Source of the DNA: Mobula hypostoma
Taxonomy: Eukaryota
Direction of reading: 5' to 3'
Length of the DNA stretch: 64,000 nt
Assembly: GCF_963921235.1 (NCBI RefSeq)
Contig: NC_086097.1
Location: 150,724,001-150,788,000 of the forward strand
Part shown: positions 9,169-53,465 of the stretch, one piece after another
Position numbering within the stretch: the stretch's first letter is position 1
How the letters are laid out: each line of letters begins with the position of its first letter
Notes under the pieces: generated by a model
Seen by the model: the letters and a program-made list of their open reading frames with translations, nothing else
Told to the model about the DNA's origin: nothing
Database searches by the model: none
Translations under genes and position numbers: made by a program

Positions 9169-10179
9169 AGTTCTACCAGTCAACCAATGTTCTATCAATG
9201 CTAGTATCTTGTCTCCAATACTACGGGTTCTTACTTAGTTTAGCAATCTTGTGTATAAAAAGTCCTAGTAAACATCCACTGACTCCCCTGTTATCTAATC
9301 TGTTTGCCTCAGAATTTAACAGATTTGTCAGGGAAGATCTCCCCCTTAACAAAAACTGAGCTGACTTTGCCCCCTTTTATCATGTATTTCCAAGTACTTT
9401 GAAGCTTCATCCTTAATAAAGGACTTTACAATCTTACAGACCATTGAGGTCAGGCTAACTAGCCTATAATTCTTCCTTTCGCCTCTTTCATTTCTTAAAA
9501 ACCAGGCAACAAGAAAATACAAAACTCTCCATATTCTTGAACATGAAGTCTCAACTCTCTTTCCAAAGATGCTGCTTTTTGACAATATGGGTAGCGTGCA
9601 TCACTAAACATTGAATATTTTCTCTATTGCCATCAAAAGTTCAGTGGTGGAAAAGGGCAGCAGTTAAGTATCAACACAGGATTCTTCTATTTGTGTTCAT
9701 TACTCTCAGGGGGGTACTGAAAACAAAAACAGCATATATCACATTTTCCCTTCGTCCTTCATTGCCCTTTCAAATAGGAGAAATGAGCAAAAGAACTACC
9801 AGAAATTTAAAAAAAACTGTTGCCCATTCCCAAAGCATTATGGAAACAAATACCAGCAGATTGAATTCTATTATATCTTATCAAAAGTGTGTGTCTGTGT
9901 TTCTTATAGTTATTCAGAAGAAATCTGAAATATTTACAGGGGAGTGGATAAATGTGCTCTAAAGAGGCAAATGGCATTTAAACTTTTACCTTTCTATTAA
10001 AACAAAACAGCTGCAACTTTCCAATCCTCTGGCACCACCCACAAATCTATACATATTTGGAAGAACCAATTAGTTATTCTAAAACAACAGGAATTCTGCA
10101 GATGCTGGAAATTCAAGCAACATACATCAAAGTTGCTGGTGAACGCAGCAGGCCAAGCAGCATCTATAGGAAGAGGCGC

Positions 10180-10215
10180 AGTCGACGTTTCAGGCCGAGA
10201 CCCTTCGTCAGGACT
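10180..10215 (-). ncRNA. Minimal type I hammerhead ribozyme motif
   Basis: The minus strand reads AGTC-CTGACGA-AGGGTCTCGGCCT-GAAA-CGTC-GACT: stem I AGUC/GACU, CUGANGA core, stem II AGG/CCU, GAAA, GUC cleavage triplet. Confidence 0.85.
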
Positions 10216-10229
10216 CTCTTCCTTCAGTT

Positions 10230-10265
10230 AGTCCTGACGAAGGGTCTCGGCCTGAAACGTCGACT
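10230..10265 (+). ncRNA. Minimal type I hammerhead ribozyme motif
   Basis: Same sequence on the plus strand: CTGACGA at 10234-10240, GAAA at 10254-10257, predicted cleavage after C10261. Confidence 0.85.
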
Positions 10266-10904
10266 GCGCCTCTTCCTATAGATGCTGCTTGGCCTGCTGC
10301 GTTCACCAGCAACTTTGATGTATGTTAGTTATTCTAAAATTTACATAAAAGGTTTCCCCTCTTTGTGGCATCTGCAAGTTTAACAATGGCATAATTTATT
10401 GACTTCAAAGTGTTTTCCTTTTCATATAGAATGTTGATTACTGTAACAACCTGGGCGTGCCTATAGAGTTAGGAATGTTATAATTCACGTTAAAATTCTG
10501 GAAGTTTCCCATGTCTGGCCTCCCACTGCATATGCTGACATGCACCAGGATAACTCTTATCCTAAATCTTGAAGACAATGTCAACAACCAAAAGAAAAAC
10601 AGTATAATCATACCAGAACATGTTTATTTGTGCAATCCAACTGAATACAGGGGGGAAAAAAGACATTCAAGCTACTGCTTGCAACATACAGTACACAGTT
10701 TCATGTACTAGTCTGAAAGTTTACAGCACAACATAGATTAAATAATCAATGCATCATGCAGTAATAGAAAAAATATCCTATAGAAAATCTTCCAAATTTG
10801 TTATTTTTACAGTGAAATCAAAACAGAAATTGTTGAAAATATTCATGTAGTAATAATGCTTGCAGATAGAACAGGTTAATACTTCAGGCATAGAACTTCT
10901 CTAA

Positions 10905-10947
10905 ATATTATTCAACCTTTTGTGGCAAGGGCCAAGTGAAACTCCCC

Positions 10948-10981
<34 letters not shown>

Positions 10982-11880
10982 GGGCCATACACAAGTTTTA
11001 TTTAATCACACGTAACAGAACTGACATTTTTAGTCATAAATATGAAAACATAAATGATAGTTGAATGGCCTATTTTCTGTTCAGAACAATAATCGTCTCA
11101 AAGAGCAGCAAACTATGCCCGGTGTTTGTGTATGTATGTAACCAATTTACTTGAAATGATTTTAATGCTTGCATCAGATATGTTGACTCAATACAAGCCT
11201 GCACTGCTTCTTAATCAACAATTATTTAATAACTTTAGAAATTAAAACTATTTTAATAGGTTGGTGTTCTAATATAAATTGCAATACAAATTGTTATTTA
11301 TTGCAACATCTATCACTCTTTTCCAGGGCTCCTTGGATTAAATACAAATCTATACATTTTTCTACACCTCTGCTGGAAGCCTGAGGGTCATTTCATCAAC
11401 TGACCAAACAAAGTATTCAGAACACAATGCCACAGAGGGCTTCTAGTCTAACCACCAACAGCAGTTCATTTACAGCCTCTGGAATTGATAGGGCAATTGT
11501 GTTATTAGCAGTACTTTAATCCAACACTGGAATGAACCCTCTTGCTCCAGCTTGATGCATGTATCAAGTAATCACTGTGTTGTTGCAAGGCCCTCATATG
11601 CCAAGTGAACAACTTATGAGTGGATAGATGTTGATTTGCTGCTTTTTTTTGACAAACAATGGCTTTTAATATGAAATAGAATGTAGTCAGCAGCTCTGTG
11701 AACAGAAAAATTGACTGGCTGAGGAGACTGCTTGATAGAAACTCCAAAGTAAAAGAACTCAGGCTTGTCTGGATATAAAGCATGAAAAACAACACCACTT
11801 CTACAAGAACATGTGGCAACCAATCAGCATGGACATGAGTAATGAAGAAATGCATTTGTTATGATCGTTCAGATGAAGTC
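10905..11880 (-). mobile_element. Possible ancient hAT transposon remnant
   Basis: Minus-strand QHSDYLIHASSWSKRV loosely resembles the hAT LLYHTEVRWLSRG block. A TIR-like TTCAACCTTT lies near 10911. Confidence 0.3.
10949..10976. repeat. (AAAT)n microsatellite
   Basis: Seven tandem AAAT units. Confidence 0.95.
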
Positions 11881-12331
11881 AACCTCATGCCATTTCAGAT
11901 TAACAGGACAATTAATATTTGATCGGGTTAAAAACATCACAAGTTAAAATTGAAATTGCTAAGTACCATTTATTTTAAAAAAAAATAAATCCTGCATTAA
12001 TCAGGCTTCTATAGCAAGTTAAAAAAAAAAGCATGCTAGCACCATTATAGGTGTTTAACTCAAACTAGCTGGAATTTTAAAATTTCTGTTAATCCACAAT
12101 CCTGTGGGAAAGAACTATTTCAGTAATACAATGAAACTTTCCATAAGATAACAAACATGATAAGGGTGAATCTTACAGTTTGTATTTTAATCTTGTATCT
12201 TATAATAATCAGCTGAACAGCATGCTTCTAACTTCATCTGGTTAAATGAAATCTTAGGTGTGTTTGTGAATATATACATCAAGATTTATTTGGAATCCCA
12301 TATCAAAAACGAAAATGTATTACATTTTACT

Positions 12332-12562
12332 GCAGCACACACAAAATGCTGGAGGAACTCAACAAGCCAGGGAGTGTCTATGGAAGAGTGTAAACAGCTG
12401 ATGTTTCAGGCAGAGACGCTTCATCACAGCAGTCATCAGTCCTGATGAAGGTTCTCACCCTAAAATGTCAACTATTTACTCTTCCATAGATGTTGCCTGA
12501 GCTGCTGTCCCTCCAGCATTTTGTGTGTGTTGATTTGGATTTCCAGTATCTGCAGGTTTTCT
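12332..12562. mobile_element. Older Penelope-like pLTR fold-back copy with a decayed hammerhead
   Basis: Imperfect inverted arms around about 12430. AGTC-CTGATGA-AGGTTCTCACCCT-AAAA-TGTC-AACT at 12438-12473 has GAAA mutated. Confidence 0.8.
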
Positions 12563-14234
12563 CGGGTTTGAGATACCGTATTTCACTACCTCCTTACTGC
12601 ACAGGAGACCATTTTGGCTCCGAGAGCAATCCCATTCTAATATATTTTTCCCTGTACTCTAATCTCTCCATATTCCCATTAAATCCCCCAGATTCTACGA
12701 CTCATCTACACACCAAGGGCAATTTATAGTAACCAATTAACTAACACCTCACAGATCTTTCGGATGGGGAGGGGAACTGGAACAGTCCCGCCCAATCTTG
12801 GAATGTGCAAACGACAGAAAGGTCAAGAATGGACCTGGATCACACAAGTTGTGAGACAGCATCTAATTGGAACATCTTGAGAAACCGGAAGAGAACTCAC
12901 TTGATGGTATATACTGCAGAATAACAACTTGCATTATGTTGCACCCTTAATGAAGTACAACATTCAAGCTTTCATTTCATAAAAGCTGGGATGTTAACAA
13001 AAAATCCTACTTTCTGACTCTTCACTTTGTATTTATTAAATAACCAATAGCAACATAATCTGCTCCATTACCAGGAATTAGCAACTATATAAAAAGTTAG
13101 AAGCACAAATTTTGCAACAAACAAAATTCAAACTAAGATTTTGAGAGGAGGAGGAAAACATACCTGTAGATCGATTCAGACCAAAGCACAATTATGTAGG
13201 AGAGTTCCACATCCAAACTCAAATGTAACATTAAAATCATGGAAGTTGAACCCTGACAGTTGTATTTTAATATTGTTGCTTCCCTTCGTCCAGCCTTCAC
13301 TGTTTTACCTCATGATGGCAAATGAGGAGCAGAAACATTGGGTAGGCTAGAGGCCCTTCTTGAATGCCAGGAATAAAATGCTCACAGAATAAGGATTGCA
13401 AAAGGATTTTCTCTTCCACATGACAACATCTAACTAAAAGAAATTCAACTCATCAGTGGCAATCAGTTATATTAACATAAACCAATTTTAAACCAGGGAC
13501 CATTAAAAAGAGTAAAATTTGGTAGTCAGCAAGGTGATATAAATTGTAATCAGACAGTGACAAATGACTGTCTCTCATTAGAAATATTAACCAATAACAA
13601 ACAAATCTCAGGAAATCCAATACTTTCAGCTGAGTCTGTCGTGCAAACTATATTGCTTGCTTCTATATTCCATAAGAAGCCCAAGTTCCTGTCAGTCACA
13701 TACACAGGAATGCCTGCTCAGGACACATTCCCGACATCTCCAGAGCAATTCATTTATTTAATACCACTATAAGTTTAATCCATGTTAACTGATCAGTGCC
13801 ACTAGAAATCAAGTTTTAAGAATGTTGAATTTTTTCGTGAATTTTCAGAAACCATATGTTCAAGGCCAAATACAGAAATCCAGAAGTCAACATTCTGAGG
13901 GTCATGATATATTATTTACATTCCTGTTATTTCCAGGAACTTCCATCTCCCTATCCAGAACACAGTTGGAAATATGTGCATGAGGAATTCCATTAACTCA
14001 ATAAGTTTTATTTTTGTTTTAAAAAAATGTATATTATTGTGTTACTACACACAATACAGGCTCAAAACAATTGAACAGCCAATGTTAACTCTTGTTTGGG
14101 TAGAAAGGTGAAAGAATGAAAAAGTGTTGTACAAGATCTTCTCAGTGGCAATACACTGCATTATTGCTCTTAATTCTGTAAAAAAAAAGTTTTAGAAATG
14201 CAATGTTTTCCAATTACAATACCCAGTGCTGCAA

Positions 14235-15150
14235 AAAACATGTCAAGCAGAATCTAACGAGGCAAAGGTATGATTGATGTTTCGGGTCAAGGCACTGCAT
14301 CCAGACAGACTATAGTAGGAAGGCAGCCAGAATATAGAGGTATGAGTGAAGGATGTTCAGGGCTGTTCGGTGATGGGTGGACCCAGATGAGGTAAGGAAT
14401 AATGAGATGGGAGGGTGATTGGTGGAAATAGATACTGAAAAAATTGGGCAGATAGAGCCAGATAGAAGGGGAAGGTAACAAATCTTGCTAACATGAGGGA
14501 GGGGAATGGAAAAGGTAAAGGAAAAGGGAACACAGGCAACCAGTGAAAGTGGGAAAGAAACACAGAGGTTGTGAACCACCAGAACTTGGAAGATTCATTT
14601 GTTAATGTCCCATGGTTGTTGGCTATCCAAGTGGAATATGAGGTGTTGTTCTTTTAGCTTGTATTTGATCACACTGTGGCAATGGAGGTTGAGGGCAGAC
14701 AGTTTGGTGTAGGTGTGGGTAATGGGAGTTGAAATGACGTGCAACCAGAAGCTCAAGATACTCATTACAGACAGGGCAGATGATGCACAAACTGATCACC
14801 TACTAAAAGCTTGATCACATTGATGAAAAAGATACAAGTGCAATAAACAAGGTCAGAGGAGATGCACTGAATCTCTGCCTTATGTGGAAGGAATGTTTAA
14901 GTCCATGGATGGTAGTAAGAGAGGTGTATAGGAACAATTGTTACACCTTTATGGCTACAGGGACAAATGCCAGAGGAGAGGGAGGGATGAGTGAAGCAGG
15001 ATCACGAGAGAGTGGTCCCTGCAGAGCAGAAATTTTGGTGGCAGAAGGGAAAATGGCACAGGTGATGGGATTCTCTTACAGCTGGCAGAAATGCTGGATG
15101 TAGTGCTTAGTGGGGTCAGCCGTTTTTTTTTTGCTCAATATTCCAGCAGC
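14235..15150 (-). mobile_element. Penelope-like element 3' remnant (GIY-YIG region and pLTR)
   Basis: The minus strand near 14600-14650 encodes EQHLIFHLDSQQPWDIN, like the PLE endonuclease C-terminus. A decayed hammerhead lies at about 14270-14306. Confidence 0.75.
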
Positions 15151-16169
15151 TGCAGTCTCTCATGTCTCCATACTTGTTGCAGACTAGGAAATTATAAAAA
15201 TGTGACAACTTTTACAAACCTCCTCCAGATACTTTCTCTTCAGACATTCTTCATTTAAAATGTTGCTGTTCCAAGCCAGTCAAGGTAAACAACCTTCCCT
15301 CAGCCCCTTTTCCTCGTTACAGCTGAGTGTAGGATGTTTACAATGGCTGTAGCTCAGTTATACACTGTCTAGGTCTCATTATTACTGAAATGACAAGAAC
15401 ATAACTTAAAAAAGAAAGACTGGAACTAAATTGTTTTATTAAAAGACTTACTCGAGCCATATAAATAAAGAGAAAATGTTGGAAATGAAGACAACATGTG
15501 ACCACAAGATGTTGATGTTTTAGGTAGATGATCCTTCTTCAGAAATAGGAAAATGCTCTTTTTTAAAAAAAACCTCAAGAGTCTGAGAGAGATACAGTGC
15601 AGAAATGGGCCTTCGGCCACTGTATCCACACCAACAACGCACTTTAGTTCTACTCCATCCTGCTTTATCCTTCCCACAATTCCAACTCTTTAGATTCCAC
15701 AACACATACACAATAGAAGCAATTTACAATGGCCAATTAACCTAGTAATTCACACATTTTTAGATGAAATCAGAGCCCTGGTCAAAGACAGAAAATGCAA
15801 TCTTCGCACTGACAGCACCAGAGGCCAGGATTGTATAATATTCTGCCAATCTGTAGAAAGAAAGCAATTGGAAAATAATGAATCCCGCATAATCAAGTTC
15901 ACTTTCTTCTACATTGGCTCTATAGGTTCAGAGGTGATTGGTGGGGCCAATATAGGATCTGCAGAATCTGCCAAAGGAAAGAAGTTTTTACTTAGTGGAG
16001 CAGGGAATTGGTCAGCTTGCAAGATGTTATGCTCCTTGTTTTGCTAACTTTAGCATTCTCTTGCATGATACAATGAATGAGTCAATGGTAATGTGGAAGT
16101 CAGCTTCTGCCTATGCACAGATACAAGTATTATCTGTGTAGTTCAGCTTGGTAAATGAAATCCACAACT

Positions 16170-16535: not shown

Positions 16536-16549
16536 CAATTCCAGTTCCA

Positions 16550-20780: not shown

Positions 20781-22865
20781 TTTTCCAAATCTTTAGCCCA
20801 GCTTTAAATGCTTTTGAATTGCTGACCAAAAAGACAAGAAAAGATGACATTCATGTACCAAAGCACTGCAAATGCTTATTATCATCAAATCATAACAGTA
20901 AGGATGTTTGCTCTCATAACTCCAGATTTTTGGTGTAATATCGAATCAAATAAATCAGAGGTGGAAACTGCAAAAGTTGGGAGCAATAGCAGTGATTAAT
21001 ACTCAAAATCCCACTGACTGAATTGGAAATAATGCATCTTACACACCTTGAATGGCATCAGAGCAGTTGATCCCTTGCAGTAAGAAGTTTGTCCATTTTA
21101 TCCCTTCATAATGATGGCAAATTGCAACATCTAGTGGAGTTGACCTACTGGCCCACAATGCTTCCATAAATCAGAACTTTATTTTTAAAACTTGTACAGA
21201 GAATTCAAAGAAAGTTATCACAGAGAGAATCAAATCAATTACGTTTCCAAAAGAAATCATTCCGCTTGAAGGTCAATTGAGAATGCCGAGCAACTCCTGT
21301 CATTTAAAGAATCTGCAGCCGGTGGTCGTAAACATCTGACTGAAAGCTAGAGAAATCTTTTACAGCTTCCAGTCGGGGATGTTTACAGCAACAGACCACA
21401 ACTGTATTACAGAAGACCCAAGAACATTACAATTATGTAAAGCAGAACAATACAAGAATACCTTGTTAAACTGTGGAAATATTCAGCAATTAATTTTGCT
21501 TCCTTGGTGCAACATTTGGACGGATGCTACCCTGACATCAAGGGTAGCAAATCCTACCAGTATTCTTGCATTCAGATTGCACTCAATTTTGTCTCAAGTT
21601 TGTATTTAGAACTGAAAGCTCAAAAGTAAATGTTGCTGATTTGCCATTTTTTTCATTATATAATTGATAACCTTTTATTTGAAGATTGAGAATAGCTGGG
21701 TCAAATATGTCTGTTTTATGGATAAGACTAAATAAGAACACAATTTTCCCCTCATTGTTGAGTAACATCAGTACCAGGGCACCTTATTTTTGTTATTTCA
21801 GAATAAAAAATTAAAGCACATAGAGATCCGGAATGGGGAGCAGAAAAAAATTTGCAACCAGTTCGAGAAAAATATATATACCCCATTTCTTTAAGTGAAA
21901 TTCCGTTGTCTTCATTTTCTACCTTCTTAGAAAAATATAAATATCTAGTAATTCCTAGATTTATAAGCAATACAGGTAAATATCACGGTCTTAAAACACA
22001 GAAATAAGGAAAGGCTATAAGGTATGATCTCTATTCATTCAAACACCATAGCTGATCTGGCTTCTCAAGCTCATTTTTCTGGCTGATTCTCATCTACTAA
22101 ATTTGTTAATGTCTAAAAATGTATTAGTTTAGTCTCAACCATACTCAATGACTTAATAATCTGCAGCCATGTAAGATAAAAAAATCCTTAACGTTTACAA
22201 CCCTCTGTGAGAAGATATTTCTCATCTCAGTCCTGAACAGTTTATCACTCATCCTGAAATTATGTATTTCAGTTCTATACTCCCAAGTTGGTGGAAACAA
22301 TTGAAACTGATTTTTATCATCTATCATGCCACTTGCAAAACTCCTGTGTGCTCCCAGTGAAATCACCTCCCATTCTTCTAATTTCCAGTGAGTATAAAGA
22401 ATAAAAACAGGGAAAATACTGCATGTCAGACAGCATCTGTGGAGAAAGAGATACATTGAACATTCAGTAAATGATTCTTCATTATATAGGCCAACCTTAC
22501 TCTCATCTTTCTCAAGATTCCCCTCATCTTAGTAGTCAGTCAGTCTTGGGACTTATTCAAAGTGTACAACTCTTCAAGAATAAAGGTCAAAATTGCACAA
22601 TACTTTAAAGTCTCAACAAAGGTTGGTACAACTTCAAAAACACTTCCTAACTTTTGTTCTCAATATATTATATACCTTTCCAATTGCTTGCTGTACCTGC
22701 ACATTTGCTCTCAGAACCAACTCACCAAACACCAAGTGATCTCTTAACATTTGGAAAGCATTTTGTTTTCTATCCTTCATACCAATTGAACAACCTCATT
22801 TTCCCACATTATGCTCAATTCCAAAAACCTTATGGCCAATTATTCTATCTATGATATCTCTTTTT

Positions 22866-27197: not shown

Positions 27198-27324
27198 ACA
27201 AAATAATCTGCAGATGCTGGGGTCAAAGCAACACTCACAACATGCTGGAGGAACTCAGCAGGTCGGGCAGCATCCTGGAAAAGATTGGTCGACGTTTCAG
27301 GCCGGAACCCTTCGTGTTGTGAGT
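27198..27324 (-). mobile_element. Penelope-like pLTR fragment with a short inversion
   Basis: CTGCAGATGCTGG...GTCGACGTTTCAGGCCGGAACCCTTCG, then TGTTGTGAGT, the inverse of ACTCACAACA. Confidence 0.75.
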
Positions 27325-29551
27325 ACAGCAGCATATGTTGGATGAATTACTCTGTTGGTAACCATTAGGAACCAACAATACAGTTTTATAGTACTTTATT
27401 AGCATTGATAGTATACTAATTTGTTCTGTATTTCATTTAAATACATAATTGTTACTCAGTTAAATATGCCTCCAACTGCCCCGAGACCTCATCCTTAATG
27501 ATCGACTCCAATCTCTTCCTAACTGCTGACATAAGACTAACTAGCCTATAATTTTCTTTCTTCTGCCTCTCTCCCAATTGTCCCAATTTAATGGACTTCA
27601 TTGTACTTGTTGTTTCTTTAAAAAGGAGTGTTCAAGTATGCCCTTTATCAAATTTCTACTCTCTTCTTTCCGTATTTTTATTCTATTGCTTAACTTCTAT
27701 ATTTTATTAGTTACCCAGCAAAAGACGAAGGTGAAGACCACAAAACTCCATTACTGATATTGGGCATTTCATCTGTTCAATGGCTTTAGGTCATTCTATT
27801 GAGTTCGCTTTTATACTTTTAATTTAAAAAAAGTCTATTCCCAACAACGATAAAATCTCAAGCGTTAAACATTGACTTCTAGCAAGCTTTGCATAGAATT
27901 TTTTCTTAAATCATTCACAAGATGCAGACGATTTCTGGTACGGTCAACATTTATTGTCCAGTTTCTGAAGTGGTGCCATTTGCTGTGGAGCTGAAATAAC
28001 CTGTACTATTACATGCAGTTTCAGAATTTTCTTCCAACAATGATATAGGAACTGTGACATATTTCCAAATCAAAACAGAAATGTGTCTGGAAGATGTTAT
28101 GTTTGCCCCGAAGCTTGCTATCCTCATCTTTTTAGGTGTGAGAGATTACTAACTTGCCAGATATTGTCAAGGAATCCTTGGCAATTTGCTGCAATGCATC
28201 TTGCAGAATTGAAGGATTTTAAATCTATGCCAGACGTCCATAAATAGTCAACTTAACGATGTCACCTGGACAATATTAACTTCAAAGATTTGCAAACCAC
28301 AAGTGACAGGGTTAAGTAAATGAAGGGTGCTATAATCTTTTAAGCAAAAATGTAGGTAATGGTTATTAGATAGGTATTATCAATTGCAGTAAAAAATCTA
28401 AAACTTATTTGTAAAAGCACCACTGTTAAGGTTTTACTATGTAATTTGGCTGTCAAACTCTGATTTTCTGGACCTCAACCATGACTCCTGCCACATAACT
28501 AAGCCACAACCTTGAAATCCCAGCTCACATTCTGGACTAATGAACGAGCCAGATGTTGAACCAACAGCATTTCTAAACAACTGAATGCTGGATTATTGAA
28601 GTTTTTCCAGTATGTTATAATGGTTGGACAGGTTCAACTAATCTTATGCTATTTATATAAACATATTATGTTAAGGTATTGGATTCTGTATTTTTCCCCA
28701 ATATGATAGGATCCTAAACAGATGGGTAAATAACAAAATGACAATGAAATGTTTTTGTACATTTAATGCTGTAGCAGAATTTCAAACAAATTTCTAAGTG
28801 TTTCACTCTTGCACCAATCACATGATTGATATTTTAATGACATCATTGCAAGCTCTAATTGACTCTTAATCAGCAGTTTTAATCACTCCTACAAGAATCT
28901 TCATTAACATTGTTGGAAGAAATTCCAATATAAAACAAGTCCATCTATTATCTTTGTACCCAAGCGTGACCACACTTTAACCAATCACCATTAACACTAG
29001 ACATCTGGTATACCTGTCCTAAACATAGATGATACTCCAGATTATACCCCAACAGGTCCATATTAAATTCTGACACCCCAATCATCAACTGATTATCACC
29101 TCAAAATGTCCACCCACTAGTGTTTAACTCCCACCTCAGCTTCTGATCAGCAGTTGACACACTACCTCCCATTCTCCCATGGCCATTTTCACTAGTTATG
29201 TTGATTCTGGAGGTCAAAGTGCACCAGTATTCCAACCAGAGGTGGTAATAGATTTTCTATTCTGAGAAGTGTAATATAAAAGAAAATGCAAGTCCAGTCC
29301 CAAGGCCTTGTCATTACCCAATATTACAACAATGGGTTAATAAAATTACATACCATTTCCTAGGAAACCATTTTGATCTTGTTCATAATGTTGCAAAAAC
29401 ATCTAAAGCACTTTTAAGTCAATATAAAAACCAAATCCAAGCCCAACGGAAACTATACTATAATTAGCTATTTTATGCAATACATATTAGCACAAATGCC
29501 ATGACCATTCAAGTGTTCATCATTTCAAGAGTTAACCTGTTAAAACTTCCA

Positions 29552-29769
29552 AACAACAGGAATTCTGCAGATGCTGGAAATTCAAGCAACATACACCAAA
29601 GTTGCTGGTGAACGCAGCAGGCCAAGCAGCATCTATAGGAAGAGGCGCAGTCGACGTTTCAGACCGAGACCCTTCGGACGAAGGGTCTCGGCCTGAAACG
29701 TCGACTGCGCCTCTTCCTATAGATGCTGCTTGGCCTGCTGCGTTCACCAGCAACTTTGATGTATGTTGT
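29552..29769. mobile_element. Penelope-like pLTR fold-back insertion
   Basis: 90-nt arms 29587-29676 and 29679-29768 (2 mismatches, 2-nt spacer). TSD CTGTTAAAACTTCCA at 29537-29551 and 29770-29784. Confidence 0.9.
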
Positions 29770-32700
29770 CTGTTAAAACTTCCATCAGCTTACATGCTCC
29801 TTTCCTGTATCCAAAGCTCATTGTTACTACATATAGCAACTTCTCCAGAACAGAATTTATTACTGCAATGCTAAATTTTATGTCCTTAAAAACAGTGGCG
29901 CTTTTCACTGTGACAATGGCAGGCAGAGCTTGCTTGCACATATTAAGGTCTTAGTTACTCTCAGTTGCTACATTTAGCAAGCCGTGCCACTCCTGAAACA
30001 AACACTATTTGAATTTTGTTGTGGGAGATGACTAGGCCTTTAAGCAAAATGATTCAGGGATGTGCTCAAACCTTCCTTGAAGATGTGCAATATCCCCACT
30101 GACCTCTGGCTCATGGCTGCTCAAAGTGAATTTGTAGTATTTGGAATGGTATTGAGAATATTCTAAGAACATTCATTGTACATACTCAAGAATTGTAACT
30201 TTCTCCTGTAAATTAGTAAGAGAATCAAAATCATATGGTACAGAAACATGCAATTTGCCCCACCATATTCACACCAACAATCAAACATCCATTTACCACC
30301 CTACCCATGTTCCCATCAAGTACCCCTAGATCCTGCCAGTTATCCACTTACTAGAGACAATTTACAGTGGCTAATTAACTTACCAACCCATATCTTTAGG
30401 ATATGGAGGAAACCACAGCACCCAGAGGAAATCTATGATCACCGGAAAAAAAAACATACATACTCCACATGAACATCAAAGGTAATAATTGCTTGGATCA
30501 CTAGCACAGTGAGACAGCAGCTCTTTGAATCACACCACTAAGATGCCCAAAACTATCCACATACAACGTGTAATACAGTGAAATGCTAAAGCAAAGTCTG
30601 GATGGAAATAAAATACATAACAGGAAGGCACTTCTTGGCATTTTCAAAATCTTTATTTGATAGTAAATTCAAATAAAGGTTTCCTCACAAGTAGTGAACT
30701 CCTAGTGTTCCATTTCTTCAAAATATTACAAATAATCATGACTGTTTGAAAGCTAGGCATGTAACTGTTTCTGAGCCATATCTGTCTTTCCAAGAGAGTT
30801 TTTAGGGCAGAGTCAGTTTATCTACTTAATGAAAATGTACATTTGCTGAATTTCAATTAGACTAATCTCAAAACACACAGTAGAAATCCCCAGAGAGGGT
30901 TTCTTGGGCCTTCGATGATCCTTCAATAAGTCTTTAACACCAACTGAACAGTCATTACAATGTGTAGCAATAGTTATTCCAACAAAGTAGTGATGGCCTT
31001 TTGTTGTTGCTCACACAAAGGAACAGTACTACAGCAGAATGTGGGCACAGCCTATGAAGTTTTTACTAGTCATTATTCCATGAGCCACAATTTTATCATC
31101 TCAGTGGCCCAACTATTTCATACATTTCCCTTTTCAAGCAATGACTTCATGAACCTTTCAACTAAGGTATAGATAAGACCTGGAACAATGACAGAGCAAA
31201 CAGAAAATATTTTCTTGGGTAATGACTATTTTGTATTTATTATGAAAATAAACATGATTAAAGTGTATTTGACTCCACTAACAATCATCATAGTTTACAC
31301 CATTCTACTAGCATACAAACTGCAATCATCCTCACAGATTTAATCAACTTCAGAATTCCACTAAGCTTCAACAAATAACTCAATAAACAGGAATAAATAT
31401 ACTCATTGAAGCACAAACAAATAGAGCATTATAGCTGTAACAAGAGTCTTTTTCTATAGCAGGTTCTCTCAAACAGCACAATGGTCTTTAAAAAGTAGGA
31501 TACATTTAAATTCAAGTTTTCTAATGAATTTATGATGGCAATCCAAATGGGTAACACACACATTTTGTGAACCTGCTTGTGAAACTGTAAGCACAGATGC
31601 AGGAAACAAAGACCCTAGTTAGTTTTCCAACACTGGAGGGGAGATGTCTTATCTTTATCGGTATGCTGCAAAAAAAAGTATACTTGTCTGGCATTTCCTT
31701 CTGACCCCACCCTACACTAAACTGGAAGTTGAATCTGTAGTGAACAAAACACAATCAAAAGAACCATAATATGGAAGAGAGTCATACAGCCAGGCACATC
31801 TCCATGTGGACGATTTCATCAGTCCCATTTCCCGACTCGTTTCCTACAGCCCTGGAATTTGTTCTAAAGTTCTATTGAATCTCTTTAATTTGTTGACTCC
31901 ATTTCCACTGCTCTAACAGATAGCAGATATTGTACCACATCATCATTCTCACATTCTCTTTGCATCATTTAACTTGTTTCCCTGTTCCTTGAACCATCAG
32001 CCAGTGGAACAGCTTCACTCTTCCCTCTGTTGGCTAAATTTGTAGTCACAATCTTTTATATCACATCCAATTAAATATTTGATACTACTTCATCTTAGCT
32101 GTCCCACTTCATCCCATCCAATTTGCCCATCTTCAATTTCTACTTTAGATTTCTCACTTACTTTCCTTCCCCCCCCCAACCAAACCTCATCAACTGATGA
32201 CTACTACTGCTCAAGTGCATTTTCTACCCCCACATACATGTGGTTAATTTAACCCACCACAGGCCTGAAAATAAGATCCAACAAAGCCTCCATTTTCATA
32301 CTGATCAAGAAAGTCCGCCTTAAGTCATTTTCCTCTAAAATTATTCCAATTAACATAGGGTAACTGAAATTACCCAATATCACTACTCCTTAGCTCTGGC
32401 ATTTTCAATAAATTTACTCATCTCTACTTTTCCCATTACTTGATGCCTTATAGAATATACATAGCTTGACAGCTTCATTCTAACATTTCAAGAATTTACC
32501 ACGTTCAGCAGTACAACATCCTCCTTGATTAGTATCACCACCCTTATCACTCCTTCCCTACCTTCTGTAAAAGCCTTGTGACAAATTAAATGCTCAGTTA
32601 TATCTTTTGACTTGTATAATTCCACTAAGCCTATGCATTTGTAACTCAACTTTATTCACTATACTGCACATATATAAACACATGCAATCTATTTTCACAT

Positions 32701-38640: not shown

Positions 38641-38998
38641 GATCTTAAGTGCCACTAGTACGTAAAGGTTAGGAGGTATATAAAAATACATGCACCAGAA
38701 ACAAAACAATGTCCTTGTCAGGAGAATGCAATTACGCAAGAGGTTTGCAAGATAACATGATAAAATAGTCATGATAAAAGTGACTTATGATTTGAGTTAC
38801 ACACAGCTACTTATGTGCTAGGCATGAGACAATTTCATGATGTACATATAACTCACCCTAAAGATGCAGCATCGCACATAATAGCTCCATTTTTACCTCC
38901 AATGCTCTTAATACAAAGGCCAATGATTGGAAACTAAAGAGACAGACAAGGTTATTTAGAGTTCAGATGTTTTGGGAATCAAAAGAAAGTGGAATTCA

Positions 38999-39126
38999 AG
39001 CAACACACATAAAAGTTGCTGGTGAACGCAGCAGGCCAGGCAGCATCTCTAGGAAGAGGTGCAGTCGAAGTTTCAGGCCGAGACCCTTCGTCAGGACTAA
39101 CTGAAGGAAGAGTGAGTAAGGGATTT
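38999..39126 (-). mobile_element. Penelope-like pLTR fragment with a hammerhead variant (39063-39098)
   Basis: TSD GAAAGTGGAATTCA at 38985-38998 and 39127-39140. The minus strand reads AGTC-CTGACGA-AGGGTCTCGGCCT-GAAA-CTTC-GACT. Confidence 0.85.
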
Positions 39127-39507
39127 GAAAGTGGAATTCATGCAGGAATGCAATGCTGAGGTAAGAAGTCAGCCAGGATCGTAATGAATGGTAAAGCTAG
39201 GGCAAGATACTTAATGGTCTATTCCGGCTTCTGTTTCTCATATTCTTTTAGAAAACATTTAACATTTGTCCAAAATGAGTTGAGGAAAAAATATACTCCA
39301 AAAAATTAGTTCCATTGTACTCATAAGCTAATGCAAAAGAACAATTTGATCTAATAACTCATTACAATGAATACAAACCCAAATTCTTCTGGTTGGCACA
39401 GAAAACAGAAGCAAAAAATTAATGCATTTTAAGACTTGTTGCACAACATTTGTTCTGATAAGAACACAATCTTAAAAAAAAGGAAAAATCACAAATAAGA
39501 GAAAAAT

Positions 39508-39616
39508 CGGCAGATTATGGAAATCCGAGCAACACACACAAAACACCGGAGGAACTCAGCAGGCCAGGCAACATCGATGAAAAAAAAAGTACAGTTGATG
39601 ATTTGGGCCGAAACTG
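39508..39616 (-). mobile_element. Decayed Penelope-like pLTR fragment
   Basis: GCAACACACACAAAACACCGGAGGAACTCAGCAGGCCAGGCA matches the other copies. Confidence 0.7.
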
Positions 39617-41160: not shown

Positions 41161-42020
41161 GCCTTTGCAATTTTTCTGATATTAGTGTCAGCCATCTCCC
41201 TTATGCTATCTGAAACAAAATACAAAATTCTTAAAATACCTGTTGATAAACAGCACCAGCAGGAAACCTCATAACACTGTTCTAAGAAACAGCAGGCAAA
41301 TTTCCATCATAAGTTGCACTGTTCCTCACAATTCTGATCTTAGGAATTGCTCCTTGAAGGATCCAATCAAAATTTAATCTGTACTTTTTCAGCAAGTGAG
41401 CGTGCACACAAGAAATGCATCAATAATAGGGAGGGGAAGGCAATGTAGGTTTTTGATAAAAGAGTACAGGAGTATCCATGATATGAAGTTTGGAACTATC
41501 TACCCAAGAGGGCTGTGGAGGAAGAGTTAGAGTGTACTGCAAATAGATACAGACTTTTGGATATTGAAAGGAATTATTTGATAAATTAAGGGATTAAATC
41601 ATATTAAAGGATATATCTAGGGTGCCCAAGACTTTTGCTTGGTACTGCAGAAATTTTATATATTGCACCGTACTGCCGCCGTAAAAAAAATTTCATGACA
41701 TATGTAAGTGATGATAAACCCAATTCTGATATGGGTCTCTATTGTGGACTGAGTGTGGGAAGGAGGCAGCGAGAGAGGAATCATGGCTGGGAAAAGAAGG
41801 GTGAGGGGAGTGGGAAGCACCAGAGAGACATTCTGTAATGATCAATAAACCAGTTGTTTGGAATTAAAGGACCTTGCCTGGTGTCACCCATGCCACATCC
41901 TGCCCCGGCGCTCCTACTGTCACCTGTCCCTCACCTCTCCCACAGTGCTTCACCCTCACCACTCTCAACGTCCTTTGCCCCGCCAGATTTACAAACTTGC
42001 TTTCCACTCATTGAAAAATA

Positions 42021-42087
42021 CAGTACTGTGTAAAAGTGTTCGGCACTCTCGCTACATATATGTGACCAAGACTTTTGCACAGTACTG
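42021..42087. mobile_element. 67-bp Tc1-type MITE
   Basis: TA-CAGTACTGTGTAAAAGT...ACTTTTGCACAGTACTG-TA. Confidence 0.75.
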
Positions 42088-42842
42088 TATATGATAGATC
42101 TCAGAAGAGACAGATTGCAGCAGTCCTGAGAAAATAATCTGTTTGGATCACATTCTTTGAGATTTGTTGCACAGGATTCAATCTATAAATGCAAGTTGCA
42201 GGTATCCAACCCTTGAAATGAAATTCAGCTTGCACCTTCAATGTTAGTAAAAAGCTGGGTAGTTATACGGTAAGTAAACAGCAAACTAATGAGGCTAAAG
42301 ATTTTGCCAAAATATAATTGAGCCCTGTATCATTGTCAATGTCATTTGAATATTCAAATCTGATTGTCAGCATCTGTTGCAAAAATTCTTGCAAGTCTTT
42401 TTCTTAATAACAAATGGCATTTAGTCACTCAGATGTGTTTAAATGACTTAATAACATTTCATCCACATAACTTCTTTTGGATACATATTGTGTAGATGAA
42501 CTGCTAGCCCTATTATTTAGCAACCTTGTTTTACACAAATTAGTTGGTATATTTACCAACAATAATCAGCTGGGAAACAATCAAGAGATCATACAAGATT
42601 CTATAAAATGCAAGCTCCTTTCTACAGTGCTATAAGCTTTGGATAATATACTTGATCTCTTCTGTTATTGTTTAACTTGTGCTTACCTACAAATTTAGGT
42701 GCCCCCTATGATGCCAAGAAAGATACTAAATACTATCTGGGTCACTGAAGCAAATAGCTCCAGATTCCATGTACTCCAGAATTGACTGCAATTTTGCAAA
42801 TAATTCTACACAAATACAAAGTAAATATATCTTCTGCATGTG

Positions 42843-47689: not shown

Positions 47690-48350
47690 AAATAAGGACA
47701 AATGGAGTGGCCATTGTGTGAGTGGACCAGTGTCAGAGTGGGGAGGCTTCGGCTCAATAGGCTTAGGCAAGGTATGTTTCTGGTAGCTTTCTTCTTCTTC
47801 ATTCTTCATTCTTCGTCTGTTATTACATAGCTAAAGCAATGAGAATGGCTCCAGGGGCAGTGTTGTATTCTTTATATGAGATGTGGGAATTCAGGGAAAC
47901 CTCCAGGTTCCTAGATAAACACATCTGCACCAGGTACACTGAGCTGCTGCTCCTCAGAGGATATGTTAAGGAATTGGAGCTGCAGCTCGATGACCTTCAG
48001 GTGATAGATAAGACTATTGGGAGGTAGTCACCCCTAATTTGCAGGAGGCAGGTACTTGGGTGACTGTAGGGTGAGGGAAAGGAATGGGCAGCCAATGCAG
48101 TGCCCCTCTGTGCCGTTCCCCTCAATAATAAGTATACCGCTTTGGATACTGTTGGGGGGATGGCCTAGCAGGGGGAAGCCGCAGTGACTGAGTCTGGTGC
48201 TGTTGCTCAGAAAGGAAGGGGGAAGAAGAGGACTGCAGTAGTGCTAGGGGATTCCATAGCTAGAAGAGTAGACACGAGATTCTGTGGACACAGTAGAAAT
48301 TCCTAGCTGGTATCTTGCCCCCTGGGTGCCAGGGTTAGAGACATCTTGGA
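47690..48350 (+). mobile_element. CR1 5' UTR/ORF1 remnant, resuming at about 50326-51285 (ORF1 end and endonuclease)
   Basis: HICTRYTELLLLRGYVKELELQLDDL, then EQLVIEPTRGSDILDWV...SDHNMIEF in the distal part. Confidence 0.8.
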
Positions 48351-48354
48351 TCGA

Positions 48355-49039
48355 TCTAGGAATAATGGTGCATAGTTCCCTGAAGGTGGAATCTCATGTG
48401 GATAGGGTGGTGGAGAAAGCTTTTGGTATGCTGGCCTTTATAAATCAGAGCATTGAGTATAGGAGTTGGGATGTAATGTTGAAATTGTACCAGGCCAAAT
48501 TTGGAGTATTGTGTACAGTTCTGGTCACCGAACTACAGGAAAGATGTCAACAAAATTGACAGAGTACAGAGAAGATTTACAAAAATGTTACCTGGGTTTC
48601 ATCTCCTAAGTTACAGAGAAAGGATGAACAAGTTGGGTCTTTTTTTCTTTGGAGCGAAGAAGGTTGAGGGGGGAATTAATAGAGGTATTTAAAATTATGA
48701 GGGGGATAGATAGAGTTGACATGGATAGGCTTTTTCCATTGATAGTGGGGGAGATTCAAACAAGAGGACATGAGTTGAGATTTAAAGGGCAAAAGTTTAG
48801 GGGTAACATGAGGAAGAACTTCTTTACTCAGAGAGTGGTAGCTGTGTGGAACGAGCTTCCAGCAGAAGTGGTTGATGTTGTCATTTAAAGTTAAATTGGA
48901 CAGCTATATAGACAGGAAAGGAATGGAGGGTTATGGGCTGAGTGCAGGTCAGTGGGACTAGGTGAGAGTAAGAGTTCGGCATGGACTAGAAGGGCCGAGA
49001 TAGCCTGTTTCCGTGCTGTAATTGTTATATGGTTATATG
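48355..49039 (+). mobile_element. Young CR1 3' portion
   Basis: ORFs EYCVQFWSPNYRKD and NFFTQRVVAVWNELP; (GTTATATG)2 tail. Confidence 0.92.
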
Positions 49040-50002
49040 ATTTCTAGAGCCATCTCCTTATGTACCTGAGATGCAGACCATCAGGCCTTCAGTCTCATCA
49101 GTCTACCCAACACCATTTTCTGCCAAATATGAATTTACTTCAGTTACTCCGTTACCTTCGGTCCTCTGGCCACTATTACATCTGGGGGATTGTTTGTGTT
49201 TTCCCTAGTGAAGACAGATTTAAAGTACCTGTTCAACTCATCTGCCATTTCCTTGTTCCCCATAATAATTTCACCCGTTTCTGTCTTCAAGGGCCCAACT
49301 TTGGTCTTAACTAATTTTTTCCTCTTCCCATACCTAAAGAAGCTTTTACTATCCTCCTTTATATTCTTGGCTAGCTTACCTTCATACCTCATCTTTTCCC
49401 CCCCGTATTGCCTTTTTAGTTATCTTTTGCTGCTTTTTAAAAGTTTCCCAATCCTCTGTCTTCCCCCTCATGCTTGCTATGTTATACTCCTTCTCTTTTA
49501 TTTTTATACTGTCCTTGACTTCCCTTGTCAGCTACGGTCGCCCCTTACTCCCCTTAGAATCTTTCTTCCTCTTTGGAATGAACTGATCCCGCATCTTCTG
49601 TATTCTTCCCAGAAATACCTGCCATTGTTGTTCCACTGCAATCCCTGCTAGGGTATCTTTCCAGTCAACTTTGGCCAGCTCCTCCCTCATGGCTCCATAG
49701 TCCCCTTTGTTCAACCGTAATATTGACATTTCCAATTTTCCCTTCTCCCTCTCAAATTGTAGATTAAAACTTATCATATTATGGTCACTACCTCCTAATG
49801 GCTCCTCTACCTTGAGCTCCCTTATCAAATCCGGTTCATTACACAACACTAAATCCAGAATTGCCTTCTCCCTGGTAGGCTCTAGTATAAGCTGCTCTAA
49901 GAATCCATCTCAGAGGCAATCCACAAACTCCCTTTCTTAGGGTCCAGTACCAGCCTGATTTTCCCAGTCTACCTGTATGTTGAAATCCCCCATAACAACT
50001 AT
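49040..50002 (-). mobile_element. CR1 ORF2 endonuclease/linker fragment, inverted
   Basis: ORFs EPLGGSDHNMISF and NIKEDSKSFFRY...EMADELNRYFKSVFTRE. Confidence 0.9.
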
Positions 50003-50322
50003 AGAAGGTTGAGGAGAGTAGGAGAGATTCAAACAAGAGGACATGAGTTGAGAGTTAAAGGGCAAAAGTCTAGGGGTAACATGAGGGGGAACTTCTTTAC
50101 TCAGAGAGTGGTAGCTGTGTGGAACGAGCTTCCAGCAGAAGTGGTTGAGGCAGGTTCGATGTTGTCATTTAAAGTTAAATTGGATAGCTATATGGACAGG
50201 AAAGGAATGGAGGGTTATGGGCTGAGTGCAGGTCAGTGGGACTAGGTGAGAGTAAGAGTTCAGCACGGACTAGAAGGGCCGAGATGGCCTGTTTCCGTGC
50301 TGTAATTGTTATATGGTTATAT
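50003..50322 (+). mobile_element. Second copy of the young CR1 3' end
   Basis: Near-identical to about 48740-49039. Confidence 0.9.
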
Positions 50323-51285
50323 GGAACATATAACCTGTACAAAAGGGACAGGTTCTATCTGAACCTGAGGGATCCTTGTGGGCAGGTTTGCTAGGACTAA
50401 CAGGGATTGTTTAAATTAATTTGGCTGTGGGATGGGAAACTGAGTGACTGGGCTGAGGATGGGGCAGTTGGTATACAAGTAGATGCAATGTGTCATGACA
50501 CTGCGAGGAATGACAGGTAGATGGAAGGGCAAAGCTGCTGTCAGTGGGAAGAGTTGCAGTATAATGGGGACAAAATCGAAAAGGGTCATGAATACAGGAC
50601 TGAAGGTGTTATACATGAATCCACGCAGTACATGGAATAAGATCTCATAGCATATTTAGAGATTGGCAGGTATGACGTTATGGGAATCACTCAGTTGTGG
50701 GTGAAAGAAGATTATAGTTGGGAGCTAAACATCTAAGGATACACAGTATATCGAAAGGACAGACAGGTAGGCAGAGGTGGTGGGGTGGCTCTGTTGGTAA
50801 AAAAATGAAATAAAATCCGTAGAAAGAGGTAACATAGGATCAGGACATGTAGAATCATTGTGCATAGAGTTAAGGAACTGCAAGGATAAAAAGACACTGA
50901 TAGGAATTGTATACAGACCTCCAAACAGTAGCCAGTATATGGGGTACAGATTACAATGGGAGATAGAAAATGCATGTCAAAAGGGCAATGTTATGATTGT
51001 CATGGCTTTTCAAAGGGGAATATGCAGGTAGATTGGGAAAATCAGGTTGGTGCCGATCTCGGATCCTGAGAGAGAGTACGTAGAATGCGTATGAGATGGC
51101 CTTTTGGAGCAGCTTGTGATTGAGCCCACTAGGGGATCAGATATTCTGGATTGGGTGTGTAATGAACCAGATTTGATTAGGGAGCTTAAGGTAAATGAAT
51201 CCTTGGAAGACAGTGATCATAACATGATAGAATTTATCCTGCAATTTGAGAGAGAGAAGCTAAAGTCAAATGAATCAATATTACA

Positions 51286-52480
51286 CATTAACCAACCTTC
51301 CCACTAGGATATTAGTCCCCCTCCAGTTCAGATACAAACTGTCTCTTTTCTACATGTCCCACCTTCCCTGGAAGAGAGACCAATGATCCAAAAATCTCAT
51401 GCCCTTCCTTCTACACCAACTCCTTAGCTAAATGTTAAACTGTATAGTCTCCCTAGTTCTGTCCTCATTAACACATGCCACAAGTAGCAATCCTGAGATC
51501 ACAACCCTGGAGAACCTGCCCTTTAACTTAACACCTAACTCCCGAACTCTCTCTGCAGAACTTCATCACTTGTCCATGTCATTGGTATCTATGTGGACCC
51601 TCCCACTTGAGAATGCTGAGAACTCGATCCAGGATGTCCCAGGCTCTGGCACCCGGAGGCAACATACCATCCAGAAATTTTGTACTCGCCCACAGAATCT
51701 CCCATACATTCCCGTAACTAACGAATCCCCTATCACCACAGTGTTCCTCTTCTTCCCCACTTCCTTTCTGAGTCATAGAGGCAGACTTAGTGCCAGAGAC
51801 CTGACCACTGTGACTTTCCTCTGTGAAGTCAACACCCGCAACAGTATCCAAAGTGATGTTCAGGGGGATGCCACAGAGATACTCTGCACTAGCTCCTTAA
51901 CCCCTTTCCCCTTCCGGACTGTCACCCAGTTTCCTTGCGTGTAACTAACTATCACCCCTTCAGCCTCCCGAATGATCTAGAGTTCATCCAGTTCCAGCTC
52001 CAACTCCTGAACACGGTTTGTTAGAAGCTGCAGCTGGATGCACTTCTCGCAGTTGTAGTCATCAGAGACATAGGAGGTCTCCCTACCTTCCCACATCCTG
52101 CAAGAGGAGCATTCAACTATTCTGCTTGGCATCTCTACTGTCCTAGCTGAACAGATATCAAGAAGGGAAGGAAAAAAAATGACTAAAATGTTGCTTTCTC
52201 TAATTGAAGCCTCTCTTCACTGAAGCCTCAAGATCACCGTTCTAACTCTGTCCACTCAGACGGTGGCCGCTGTGCCCACCCCATCTACCTTTAATTTGCT
52301 CTTGCTAATCCATCTCAAACATGGATTGGTCGCTGGTCAATGCTCTATTATGGTGCTGCAACTGCTGCTCCCTTTTTCTACTTGGGCAGTGGACCTGAGT
52401 GAAATCCCATCCTCTCAAACTTCTGATGTCTGAATTGGTTGCTGGTCTAAGCTCGATAAGCTCATAAATTCCTCAGATCT
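51286..52480 (-). mobile_element. CR1 ORF1 (SGNH esterase-like) and 5' region remnant
   Basis: ORF RNTVVIGDSLVTG...FCG...MVCCL...VHIDTND. Confidence 0.8.
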
Positions 52481-52818
52481 TCAATTTTCTTTAAATGAAG
52501 AAGTAAGTAAAATTATGGCACAAGAAGAAGACACTTGGCCCGTTGGCACCACTGTGGCCAATATTTCGAGTTCTCCCACTTCCTAGCTCTAGACCGTCAC
52601 TTTGTAGTTAATGCATTTCAAGTGCACGCCCTGTTTTCAAATGCAGTGAGTGGGCCTGTATCTACCACCTCAGCAAATGAATTCCAGACACCAATTCTTG
52701 TTGAGTGAAAAAAAACCTCTCCCTTTTGTAAGCATTTCTTAGGCTCCCTAGATCTTGCCATTGCAAAGGAGAATACATCCATACTTTGCCGTCTTTCTAA
52801 GTGAATTATAATTCAATA

Positions 52819-52943
52819 CGAAGCAACACACACAAAATGCTGGAGGAACTCAGCAGGCCAGGCAGCATCTATGGAAAAGAGTAAACAGTTGATGTTTCGG
52901 GCTGAGGCTTTGGATCTGCAGCATCTGCAGATTTTCTTGTGTA
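52819..52943. mobile_element. Penelope-like pLTR fragment with an internal inversion
   Basis: TSD TATAATTCAATA at 52807-52818 and 52944-52955. Orientation switches at about 52900. Confidence 0.8.
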
Positions 52944-53465
52944 TATAATTCAATAGATCTCAGTTAAACTTTTCCTCGGTCTACATAATATAAATAATTT
53001 ACCACTAGCTGAGCAAGCCTCTCTTCCTAACAATTATTCTTCAGCACTGGCAATATCCCCATAAATTTCCTTTGCATTGTCTCCAATGTTATCATATCCT
53101 AAGTATATTCCAGATAGAGATTAACATATTTTTTGATATTAAAGAAATTAAAACAAACCGGGTTAATACAAGAAAGTGATACCAAGGGAAAAGATCATCC
53201 GAGAACTTCTTTTGAACAGTAGCATGGGCTAAATGGCCTAATCTTGCTTCCATGTTTTATGTTCTAATGTTGTTATGTTTTATTGTACAGTAGAAGAGGG
53301 TAAATGATGATGTGCTGATAATTGTAAAGTATCCAGTGATAATAGATGTCAAATGAAGGCAAATTATGCTTGGGAACCCCTCCACCCCACACACACAAGC
53401 ACACGTGGAAACACTAATGTACGTAGAGTCATACAGTTATAAAACACTACAGCACAGAAATAGGC

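Follow-up and report, generated by a model that had tools for sequence, protein, structure and literature searches.

Within a 64,000-nt window of the Mobula hypostoma genome (NC_086097.1, positions 150,724,001 to 150,788,000), several intronic pLTR copies of Penelope-like elements (PLEs) break off at or near a hammerhead motif, which raises the question of whether the ribozyme itself determines where they end. A sequence-only reading of the window had listed five such junctions and proposed that the folded or dimerised ribozyme stalls the RT, triggers template switching and thereby generates short genomic hairpins. We mapped 15 arm ends from nine insertions (A to I) by hand, with the hammerhead cleavage site as the zero point (C17 = -1; stem I has its outer edge at -32) and the interval from -33 to +5 counted as ribozyme. 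The starts of H and I were judged by eye, and four fainter relics (near 9544, 10816, 22418 and 57650) were excluded as unmappable. The search profile was made from short arms and is therefore biased toward short copies.

Head-to-head pLTR insertions in the window

Insertion A consists of a tail-started pLTR copy on the minus strand (10085..10215), whose 5' end lies at -32, and an internally started copy on the plus strand (10216..10326), which ends at -46 and meets the left arm in a blunt joint. Self-comparison revealed an inverted repeat with 97-nt, 100% complementary arms and a 14-nt spacer, and the target duplication is 15 nt long (10070-10084 / 10325-10339). Insertion D (29553..29770) is a near-perfect hairpin with a blunt joint, the arms of which end in the core at -24 and -26 (29676/29677); its target duplication is also 15 nt (29537-29551 / 29770-29784). 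The right arms of A and D are identical over 91 of 91 nt, yet their joints are unlike. In the older-family hairpin B (12322..12572) the left arm ends at -27 (12426) and is followed by about 10 nt of filler and a right arm that runs from about -33 and carries the tail. Insertion C (27200..27325) has an antisense arm ending at -25 (27315) and then a 10-nt sense piece (+52 to +61). In E (52820..52943) an internally started arm ends at -16 to -18 (about 52906-52908) and the inverted second arm is the tail alone, from about +66, a twin-priming-like arrangement within a 12-nt duplication (52807-52818 / 52944-52955). The partner arms of C and E stop far short of the ribozyme, 50-65 nt on its downstream side. 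The junction positions reported earlier, including 10215 in A, were thus correct, and they mark independent events, since the joints differ and A, D and E (as well as F) possess target duplications of their own. Inverted repeats are confined to A, B and D; neither C nor E is a hairpin.

The earlier sample was incomplete, as it lacked F, G, H and I; G supports the proposed clustering, whereas H and I do not. Insertion F (38993..39134, minus strand) is a single arm ending at -61 to -68, and its 5' joint overlaps a 14-nt target duplication (38985-38998 / 39127-39140). G (39495..39615, minus strand) is an older single arm with a tail, ending at -18 in stem II. H (14237..15075, minus strand) is a long decayed copy comprising a pLTR and ribozyme relic (14237-14301; nhmmer E 1.8e-4) with a decayed ORF end upstream; its extent is tool-supported to 14729 and judged by eye to about 15075. 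The short, tail-bearing segment at 15091..15169 (plus strand, start at about +15) is a probable but weakly supported inverted arm of H, with an nhmmer E of 0.71 and a local score of 32 against a shuffle maximum of 33. Fragment I (53426..53700, plus strand) preserves the degraded end of an ORF together with a 3' region from an element of this type, and no ribozyme was found in it. Both H and I extend 400-450 nt or more upstream of the ribozyme. Of the seven insertions checked for target duplications, four (A, D, E and F) had one of 12-15 nt; none was found in C, and none was clear in B or G.

The coding remnant of H matched protein P0001 in tblastn (E 8e-9), although P0001 had itself been found using the H stretch; I matched it with E 6e-5, compared to a best E of 1.7 in the reversed-window control. 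The direct DNA match between H and I was no better than shuffles. Pfam gave zero matches for all six frames of H and I and for P0001; no RT was detected, and protein searches for a full-length ORF found none. The nearest family-bearing Atlas cluster of P0001 is GIY-YIG (15% of members, score 0.89), which serves as a lead only.

These insertions are best read as ordinary Penelope-like insertions with a two-ended layout (probability about 0.8). The arms stand head to head; priming at both ends is what this layout suggests. The target duplications lie at AT-rich sites, a Penelope-like (EN+) trait, and A, B, D and E display the inverted 5'-truncated pLTR arrangement with a tail of about 30-35 nt on one arm. 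The target would be cut in a staggered fashion and the RT primed at each of its two ends, one cDNA starting at the tail and the other at an internal start about 33-35 nt upstream, and end-joining of the two would leave the arms head to head. In A the tail is present in the left arm only, and 14 upstream bases are present only in the right one. Thus, neither can have been copied from the other, and the arms of E barely overlap, which argues against the proposed fold-back template switching; a single-cDNA fold-back was rejected for both insertions. A master-copy hairpin of the MITE or SINE kind was rejected because the joints differ between copies. Twin priming of L1 yields a structure resembling E, with inverted, barely overlapping arms within a target duplication; in contrast, the arms of A, B and D overlap, which requires a second RNA or the re-use of one.

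Arm ends relative to the hammerhead

The minimal type I hammerhead-like motif in A (10230..10266, plus strand), identified by a motif search and by inspection of the sequence, comprises stem I (10230-10233 with 10262-10265), the CUGANGA (10234-10240) and GAAA (10254-10257) boxes, stem II, a UH site and a palindromic box, with the cut predicted after 10261. According to the motif search the hammerhead is intact in both arms of A and in F; a search of Rfam gave no hammerhead match. The G10.1-C11.1 position is a G-U pair in A, D and F, and the G-C variant made up 19-50% of the depth at 39075 across four public sequencing runs.

Eight of the 15 arm ends fell within the ribozyme. The clustering was confirmed in part; F ends beyond the ribozyme, and H and I run at least 400 nt upstream. 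With the scale set in favour of the null, this count had a P of 0.0014 under an exponential, 0.008 under a gamma 2 and 0.045 under a gamma 4 distribution, and of 0.0012 and 0.049 under log-normal nulls; counted per insertion (5 of 9), P was 0.03-0.07. A smooth decay without a peak, which would have spoken against the clustering, thus fits the window ends with a P of 0.001-0.05 depending on the choice of the smooth null. All eight ends lay in the 5' half of the ribozyme, the last part that the RT reaches (binomial P 0.008). The tail-started arms ended on average at -26 and the internally started ones at -36 (n = 5 each), close together despite starts about 33 nt apart, which favours run-off. 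No end of the 15 was within 10 nt of the cleavage site, and run-off at that site was rejected as the main source. Moreover, the ribozyme is located 60-135 nt from the two RT starts, and short products would therefore stop near it regardless. The surplus of ends beyond that probably reflects a modest hot spot on the 5' edge of the ribozyme.

Contigs from the public runs were compared with the 140-nt insertion F as the reference copy, which carries a change of its own at 39069. Run X4, possibly the source sample of the window, contained 70,364 matching contigs, so the family is very abundant. Loose ends at 39098 (-32) were found in 343, 240 and 273 contigs of X4, X8 and X13, respectively (among the best 24 of 629 loose-end rows, ordered by support), whereas this position was not among the best six rows for X9; in three of the four runs, the outer stem I edge thus stood out as an abrupt break and a possible single-base hot spot. 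The other stem I edge, 39062, had a similar peak (278, 236 and 237 contigs, among the same best 24 of 629 rows). The consensus beyond 39098 was alike in three runs, and a motif from it recurs in H. At least some of these loose ends come from sister families that diverge at the stem I edge, which confounds the break at 39098. At 39106, a second upstream subfamily accounted for 21-23% of the depth in three of the runs and for 98% of it in X13. Upstream of stem I the modelled depth was 165k, down from about 455k, but a step in copy length was set aside as the explanation, since the second subfamily is lost there to the 80% filter. A rough depth model gave a read-through past stem I of 0.52-0.98 in X4 and X8 and 0.43-0.68 in X9, by which 50-98% of young arms would read through the ribozyme and the majority seem to pass -34 to -40. 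Four of the 10 back or inverted joints listed (best 12 of 51 rows by support, with the joint type not stated in one table) leave the element at -32/-31 (corrected P 0.003), and the first added letter was C in all four, as expected of a cap-copied base. Runs X17-X19, which contained none of the search words, were excluded from the counts. A pattern scan for extra copies yielded none in viral contigs, none and then two in metagenomes and one in prokaryote genomes; the three matches were dropped because their similarity was confined to the pattern itself.

Possible causes of the hot spot

The likeliest cause of the hot spot, to which we nevertheless give somewhat less than even odds, would be run-off from an RNA 5' end at or just above -32. 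The RT would begin in the upstream pLTR copy, copy the entire ribozyme and exhaust its template at or slightly above -32, after which end-joining would trim up to about 15 nt; longer copies would stem from starts in the downstream pLTR. As most young arms seem to pass -34 to -40, such run-off would explain a minority only. In A, B and F, the A at -32 belongs to what we take to be an initiator-like motif; four occurrences of this motif fall within the 40 nt upstream, and H lacks it at -32. PLE transcripts start within the pLTR (PMC6765202), the product length of the anole PLE PAc tracks the template 5' end (PMC11167929), and PMC11702581 describes full-length L1 joints with an extra G. However, transcription of D. 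virilis Penelope begins about 120 nt above helix I (PMC2377424 with PMC4209133), which counts against run-off at -32. More tentatively, the PLE transcript could begin at the first base of the hammerhead and give rise to a strong-stop-like cDNA of 95-130 nt with a cap-copied end, pairs of which would be joined into hairpins. The RT may also jump onto ribozyme-cut RNA ends.

It is conceivable, though doubtful, that no special site exists and that short products, selection against long intronic inserts, ribozyme-based detection and family divergence at stem I jointly mimic the clustering. The peaked smooth nulls (P about 0.05), the per-insertion values, the omission of H and I from the earlier sample and the high modelled read-through are consistent with this, and the second upstream subfamily can account for the drop in depth; at the same time, broad nulls gave a P of about 0.001, the ends in the ribozyme share one half of it, and the four joints at -32/-31 lack intervening upstream family sequence. 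Stalling of the RT is a weaker reading than run-off from a short RNA template, and we consider it unlikely. In its most workable form, two RTs, one at each target end, would copy two RNAs paired head-to-tail through the ribozyme and would halt near or past the duplex centre, bringing the cDNA ends together. A duplex of two ribozyme copies was predicted in silico at -30.3 kcal/mol versus 2 x -11.0 kcal/mol (a gain of 8 kcal/mol), PAc itself is predicted to be a dimer, E and G end at about -18, close to the duplex centre, and two opposite-strand joints among those listed involve -17 and -31. Moreover, no other 38-nt stretch of the arm is as stable as the ribozyme (-11.0 versus -4 to -9.6 kcal/mol elsewhere), where -11.0 kcal/mol is the predicted energy of a rod and the active-like monomer reaches -5.6 kcal/mol. 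However, a monomer fold would block the 3' half, which the RT enters from +5 and where none of the eight ends lies; the fold did not stand out from shuffles (z of -0.93 as RNA and +0.53 as cDNA), most young arms seem to read through, and the joints of A and D are blunt. Joining by stem microhomology found no support, with 0 nt of it in A and D, 1-2 nt in E and filler in B. In addition, core mutants of the PAc ribozyme, which may retain the stems, gave the same insertion band in vitro (PMC11167929). The folded ribozyme thus accounts less well for the junctions, though a dimer effect may still contribute. A splicing origin, in which the AG at -32/-31 and the pyrimidine tract before it would form a 3' splice site and copies of spliced RNA would leave the element there, appears improbable. 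The sequence upstream of the AG is 78% pyrimidine in F, 97 loose ends of X13, long and heterogeneous, lie at -30, immediately past the AG (among the rows listed), and the intron of D. virilis Penelope extends to the 5' limit of helix I (PMC4209133), but no upstream exon is common to the window joints and the ends at -18 to -27 are left unaccounted for.

Relation to known elements

Neither the elements nor their inverted layout nor the ribozyme is new. For EN+ Penelope-like elements, the accessible parts of PMC8557442 and PMC3846280 describe an inverted 5'-truncated pLTR copy and a 30-40 bp tail, with head-to-head arms, the tail on one arm, a ribozyme in the pLTR and 12-15 nt target duplications as observed here; the present inserts differ in being mostly pLTR-only and 120-250 bp long. 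The same portion of PMC3846280 invokes self-priming on an antisense template for inverted joints, whereas the arms here better fit two priming events. PAc, a Poseidon element of Anolis carolinensis, cuts and extends both target strands, and its RT starts at two sites that flank the tail and lie 111-118 nt inside an ORF whose start is at the ribozyme (PMC11167929). In both systems two RT starts frame the tail, close to an AC-rich stem-loop and about 100 nt below the hammerhead, but the young family here has no start codon at the ribozyme. That study maps RT starts, not genomic 5' breakpoints, and in the open-access literature, to which our search was confined, we found no paper mapping 5' breakpoints against the ribozyme. 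Minimal PLE hammerheads, as described in the available text of PMC4209133, have the same core boxes, an extra base after A9, a short stem I and a palindromic box replacing helix III; here, stem II has just 3 bp, the G10.1-C11.1 pair is G-U in the youngest subfamily, and cleavage is predicted. The same text reports opposite-strand hammerhead pairs 100-700 bp apart in Schistosoma.

The junctions bear on how PLE insertions are completed and on the role of their ribozyme. Since the family is so abundant, its junctions form a large natural record, and a family-resolved junction histogram could separate run-off from stalling and perhaps locate the RNA 5' end from DNA alone. If the transcript does begin at the hammerhead, many short pLTR inserts would be complete run-off products and not truncations; if the RT jumps onto ribozyme-cut RNA ends, the junctions would provide a genomic record of cleavage in vivo. 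Short PLE-derived ribozyme units are likewise described as non-LTR retrozymes, with one cartilaginous fish reported in the available part of the preprint (bioRxiv 10.64898/2026.07.22.740005), where they form direct tandem arrays, a layout that differs from the present one. Self-BLAST of the window found no direct tandem units of this family with a complete hammerhead; among the joints listed for X8, one is possibly a tandem of about 110 nt.

Arm ends at the hammerhead

The sequence-only reading held that pLTR breakpoints cluster at the hammerhead in five insertions, and its five junction coordinates proved right. Relative to the predicted cleavage site (C17 = -1; outer edge of stem I = -32), the 5' ends of the arms, each one pLTR copy, lie at -32 and -46 in insertion A (10085-10326), -27 and about -33 in B (12322-12572), -25 and +52 in C (27200-27325), -24 and -26 in D (29553-29770), and -16 to -18 and +66 in E (52820-52943). 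That reading had overlooked four insertions, with ends at -61 to -68 in F (38993-39134), -18 in G (39495-39615), -450 or further (by eye about -790) in H (14237-15075), whose probable second arm (15091-15169) ends near +15, and about -400 or beyond in I (53426-53700). With these added, the 38-nt ribozyme still holds 8 of the 15 ends (P 0.001-0.05 under five smooth nulls tuned in favour of chance), in a count that omits four faint relics and draws on copy detection biased to short copies. Per insertion, five of nine have ends there (P 0.03-0.07). The clustering is partly confirmed and the excess is probably real but modest; such clustering was not found in the open-access literature searched. 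Of the five insertions first named, the inverted-repeat search recovered only A, B and D as hairpins. If transcribed, hairpins A and D would yield double-stranded RNA of 90-97 bp.

Very old pLTR-arm-like relics whose ends are unmappable occur at 9544-9577, 10816-10900 and 22418-22477; the similarity of the latter two seems to peter out close to the ribozyme core. Two 113-nt tandem copies (57629-57855, 95% identical) match the pLTR profile faintly (E 0.05).

Junctions in contigs of public runs

Contigs from four organisms (runs X4, possibly the window's own source, X8, X13 and X9) were aligned to copy F at 80% likeness, giving 70,364, 52,877, 9,490 and 1,860 contigs, respectively. Among the rows listed, the top upstream-side loose end was 39098 (-32; 343 contigs in X4, 240 in X8, 273 in X13), the same base as junction 10215 of insertion A; it was absent among the X9 rows listed. 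A similar peak marks the opposite edge of stem I, and 234 (X4) and 271 (X8) contigs continue beyond F's own end. The -32 consensus is similar in three runs and its motif recurs in H (one match, 0.01 expected), which implies that upstream-divergent sister families collapse onto -32. The peak is therefore confounded by sister families. The loose ends agree at only 0.37-0.40 and their loose parts have medians of 105-145 nt, leaving room for true junctions at -32.

Less confounded are the joints. Among those listed (12 of 51, picked by support), four of the ten back or inverted joints exit at -32/-31 (P 0.003 after correction) and pass into another element piece with upstream family sequence absent between.

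Three of the ten resume at 39070 (39064-39070, blurred to several bases by F's private base at 39069, in a table without joint type), and their added letters follow the family sequence until close to the cleavage site (-2, -1, +3); these may reflect RT jumping onto ribozyme-cut RNA ends. One X8 joint, 39098 to 38993, at about five times single-copy depth, connects -32 with the tail region and may represent a retrozyme-like tandem unit of about 110 nt.

Read-through was modelled in X4, X8 and X9 (X13 being too distant) from the depth of overlapping 31-letter words with 12 settings per run. The fit to the profile's left edge was close in X4 and X8 and poorer in X9. Modelled read-through past stem I was 0.52-0.88 (X4), 0.58-0.98 (X8) and 0.43-0.68 (X9), with a floor reaching -58 to -68 of 0.21-0.38 (X4, X8) and 0.08-0.27 (X9); as depth is not copy number, these values are rough, but they do indicate that the ribozyme is no wall.

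Possible causes of the clustering

We favour, at a probability of about 0.4, run-off, in which RT would reach the end of its template at an RNA end lying on the edge of the ribozyme. Ends track position more than arm length, weakly (n = 5 and 5). The first added letter is C in all four joints at -32/-31; an additional G is found at the joints of full-length L1 copies (PMC11702581). An initiator-like motif lies at -32 in three copies, and also at three other upstream sites. PLE transcription starts within the pLTR (PMC6765202), though the D. virilis start lies some 120 nt upstream of helix I (PMC2377424). Geometry and bias alone are a somewhat less likely explanation. Stalling of RT by the folded or dimerised ribozyme, the cause first suggested, is the weaker explanation and is unlikely: the ribozyme is predicted to be the most stable local stretch of the arm and can dimerise by pairing in silico, but RT would meet the predicted rod-like fold at +5, whereas all eight in-ribozyme ends lie in the far half, at -16 or beyond. 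Moreover, RNA and cDNA folds were no better than shuffles, the joints in A and D are blunt, and in PAc, the Poseidon PLE of Anolis carolinensis, ribozyme mutants left the product unaltered (PMC11167929). Use of the AG at -32/-31 as a 3' splice site is the least likely of the four readings.

Element identity, arm layout and neighbouring features

The window is vertebrate DNA; the sequence-only reading places it in a cartilaginous fish, which would fit this repeat. BLAST, inverted-repeat and profile searches delineated a family of 100-250 bp inserts. Each arm covers part of a single sequence made up of a pyrimidine-rich stretch, a minimal hammerhead-like motif and a stem-loop, to which some arms add a tail of about 33 nt. 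Like the PLE ribozymes described in PMC4209133, the hammerhead-like motif has the core boxes, an extra base following A9 and a palindromic box; Rfam gives it no score. Target duplications of 12-15 nt flank four of the seven insertions tested. The protein fragment P0001 matches both H (E 8e-9), with which it was discovered, and I (E 6e-5), the only independent support; the best reversed control gave E 1.7. A tie of P0001 to GIY-YIG is a lead; Pfam gave no match for it or for the H and I reading frames. The element is of a known kind and its arm layout is known: PLEs typically leave copies that are inverted, truncated at the 5' side and tailed at a single end (PMC8557442, PMC3846280 and PMC8969392).

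Each arm of A carries bases absent from its partner and the arms of E scarcely overlap, so the second arm was not copied from the first. Two priming events, one per target end, would produce the two arms. This agrees with the Anolis element, in which both strands are cut and extended and two start sites bound the tail (PMC11167929).

Two mir-30 precursors lie on the minus strand (15276-15350 and 21319-21395), the first about 105 nt from the end of H; their host gene is presumably NFYC. At 42018-42090, inverted arms of 29 nt bound a 73-nt element that is probably a small DNA-transposon derivative, and a 195-codon open frame (36104-36691) resembles the C-terminal region of hAT-type transposases. 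Numerous LINE-like RT fragments, labelled by eye, occupy both strands of 1000-5600 and 48000-52200.
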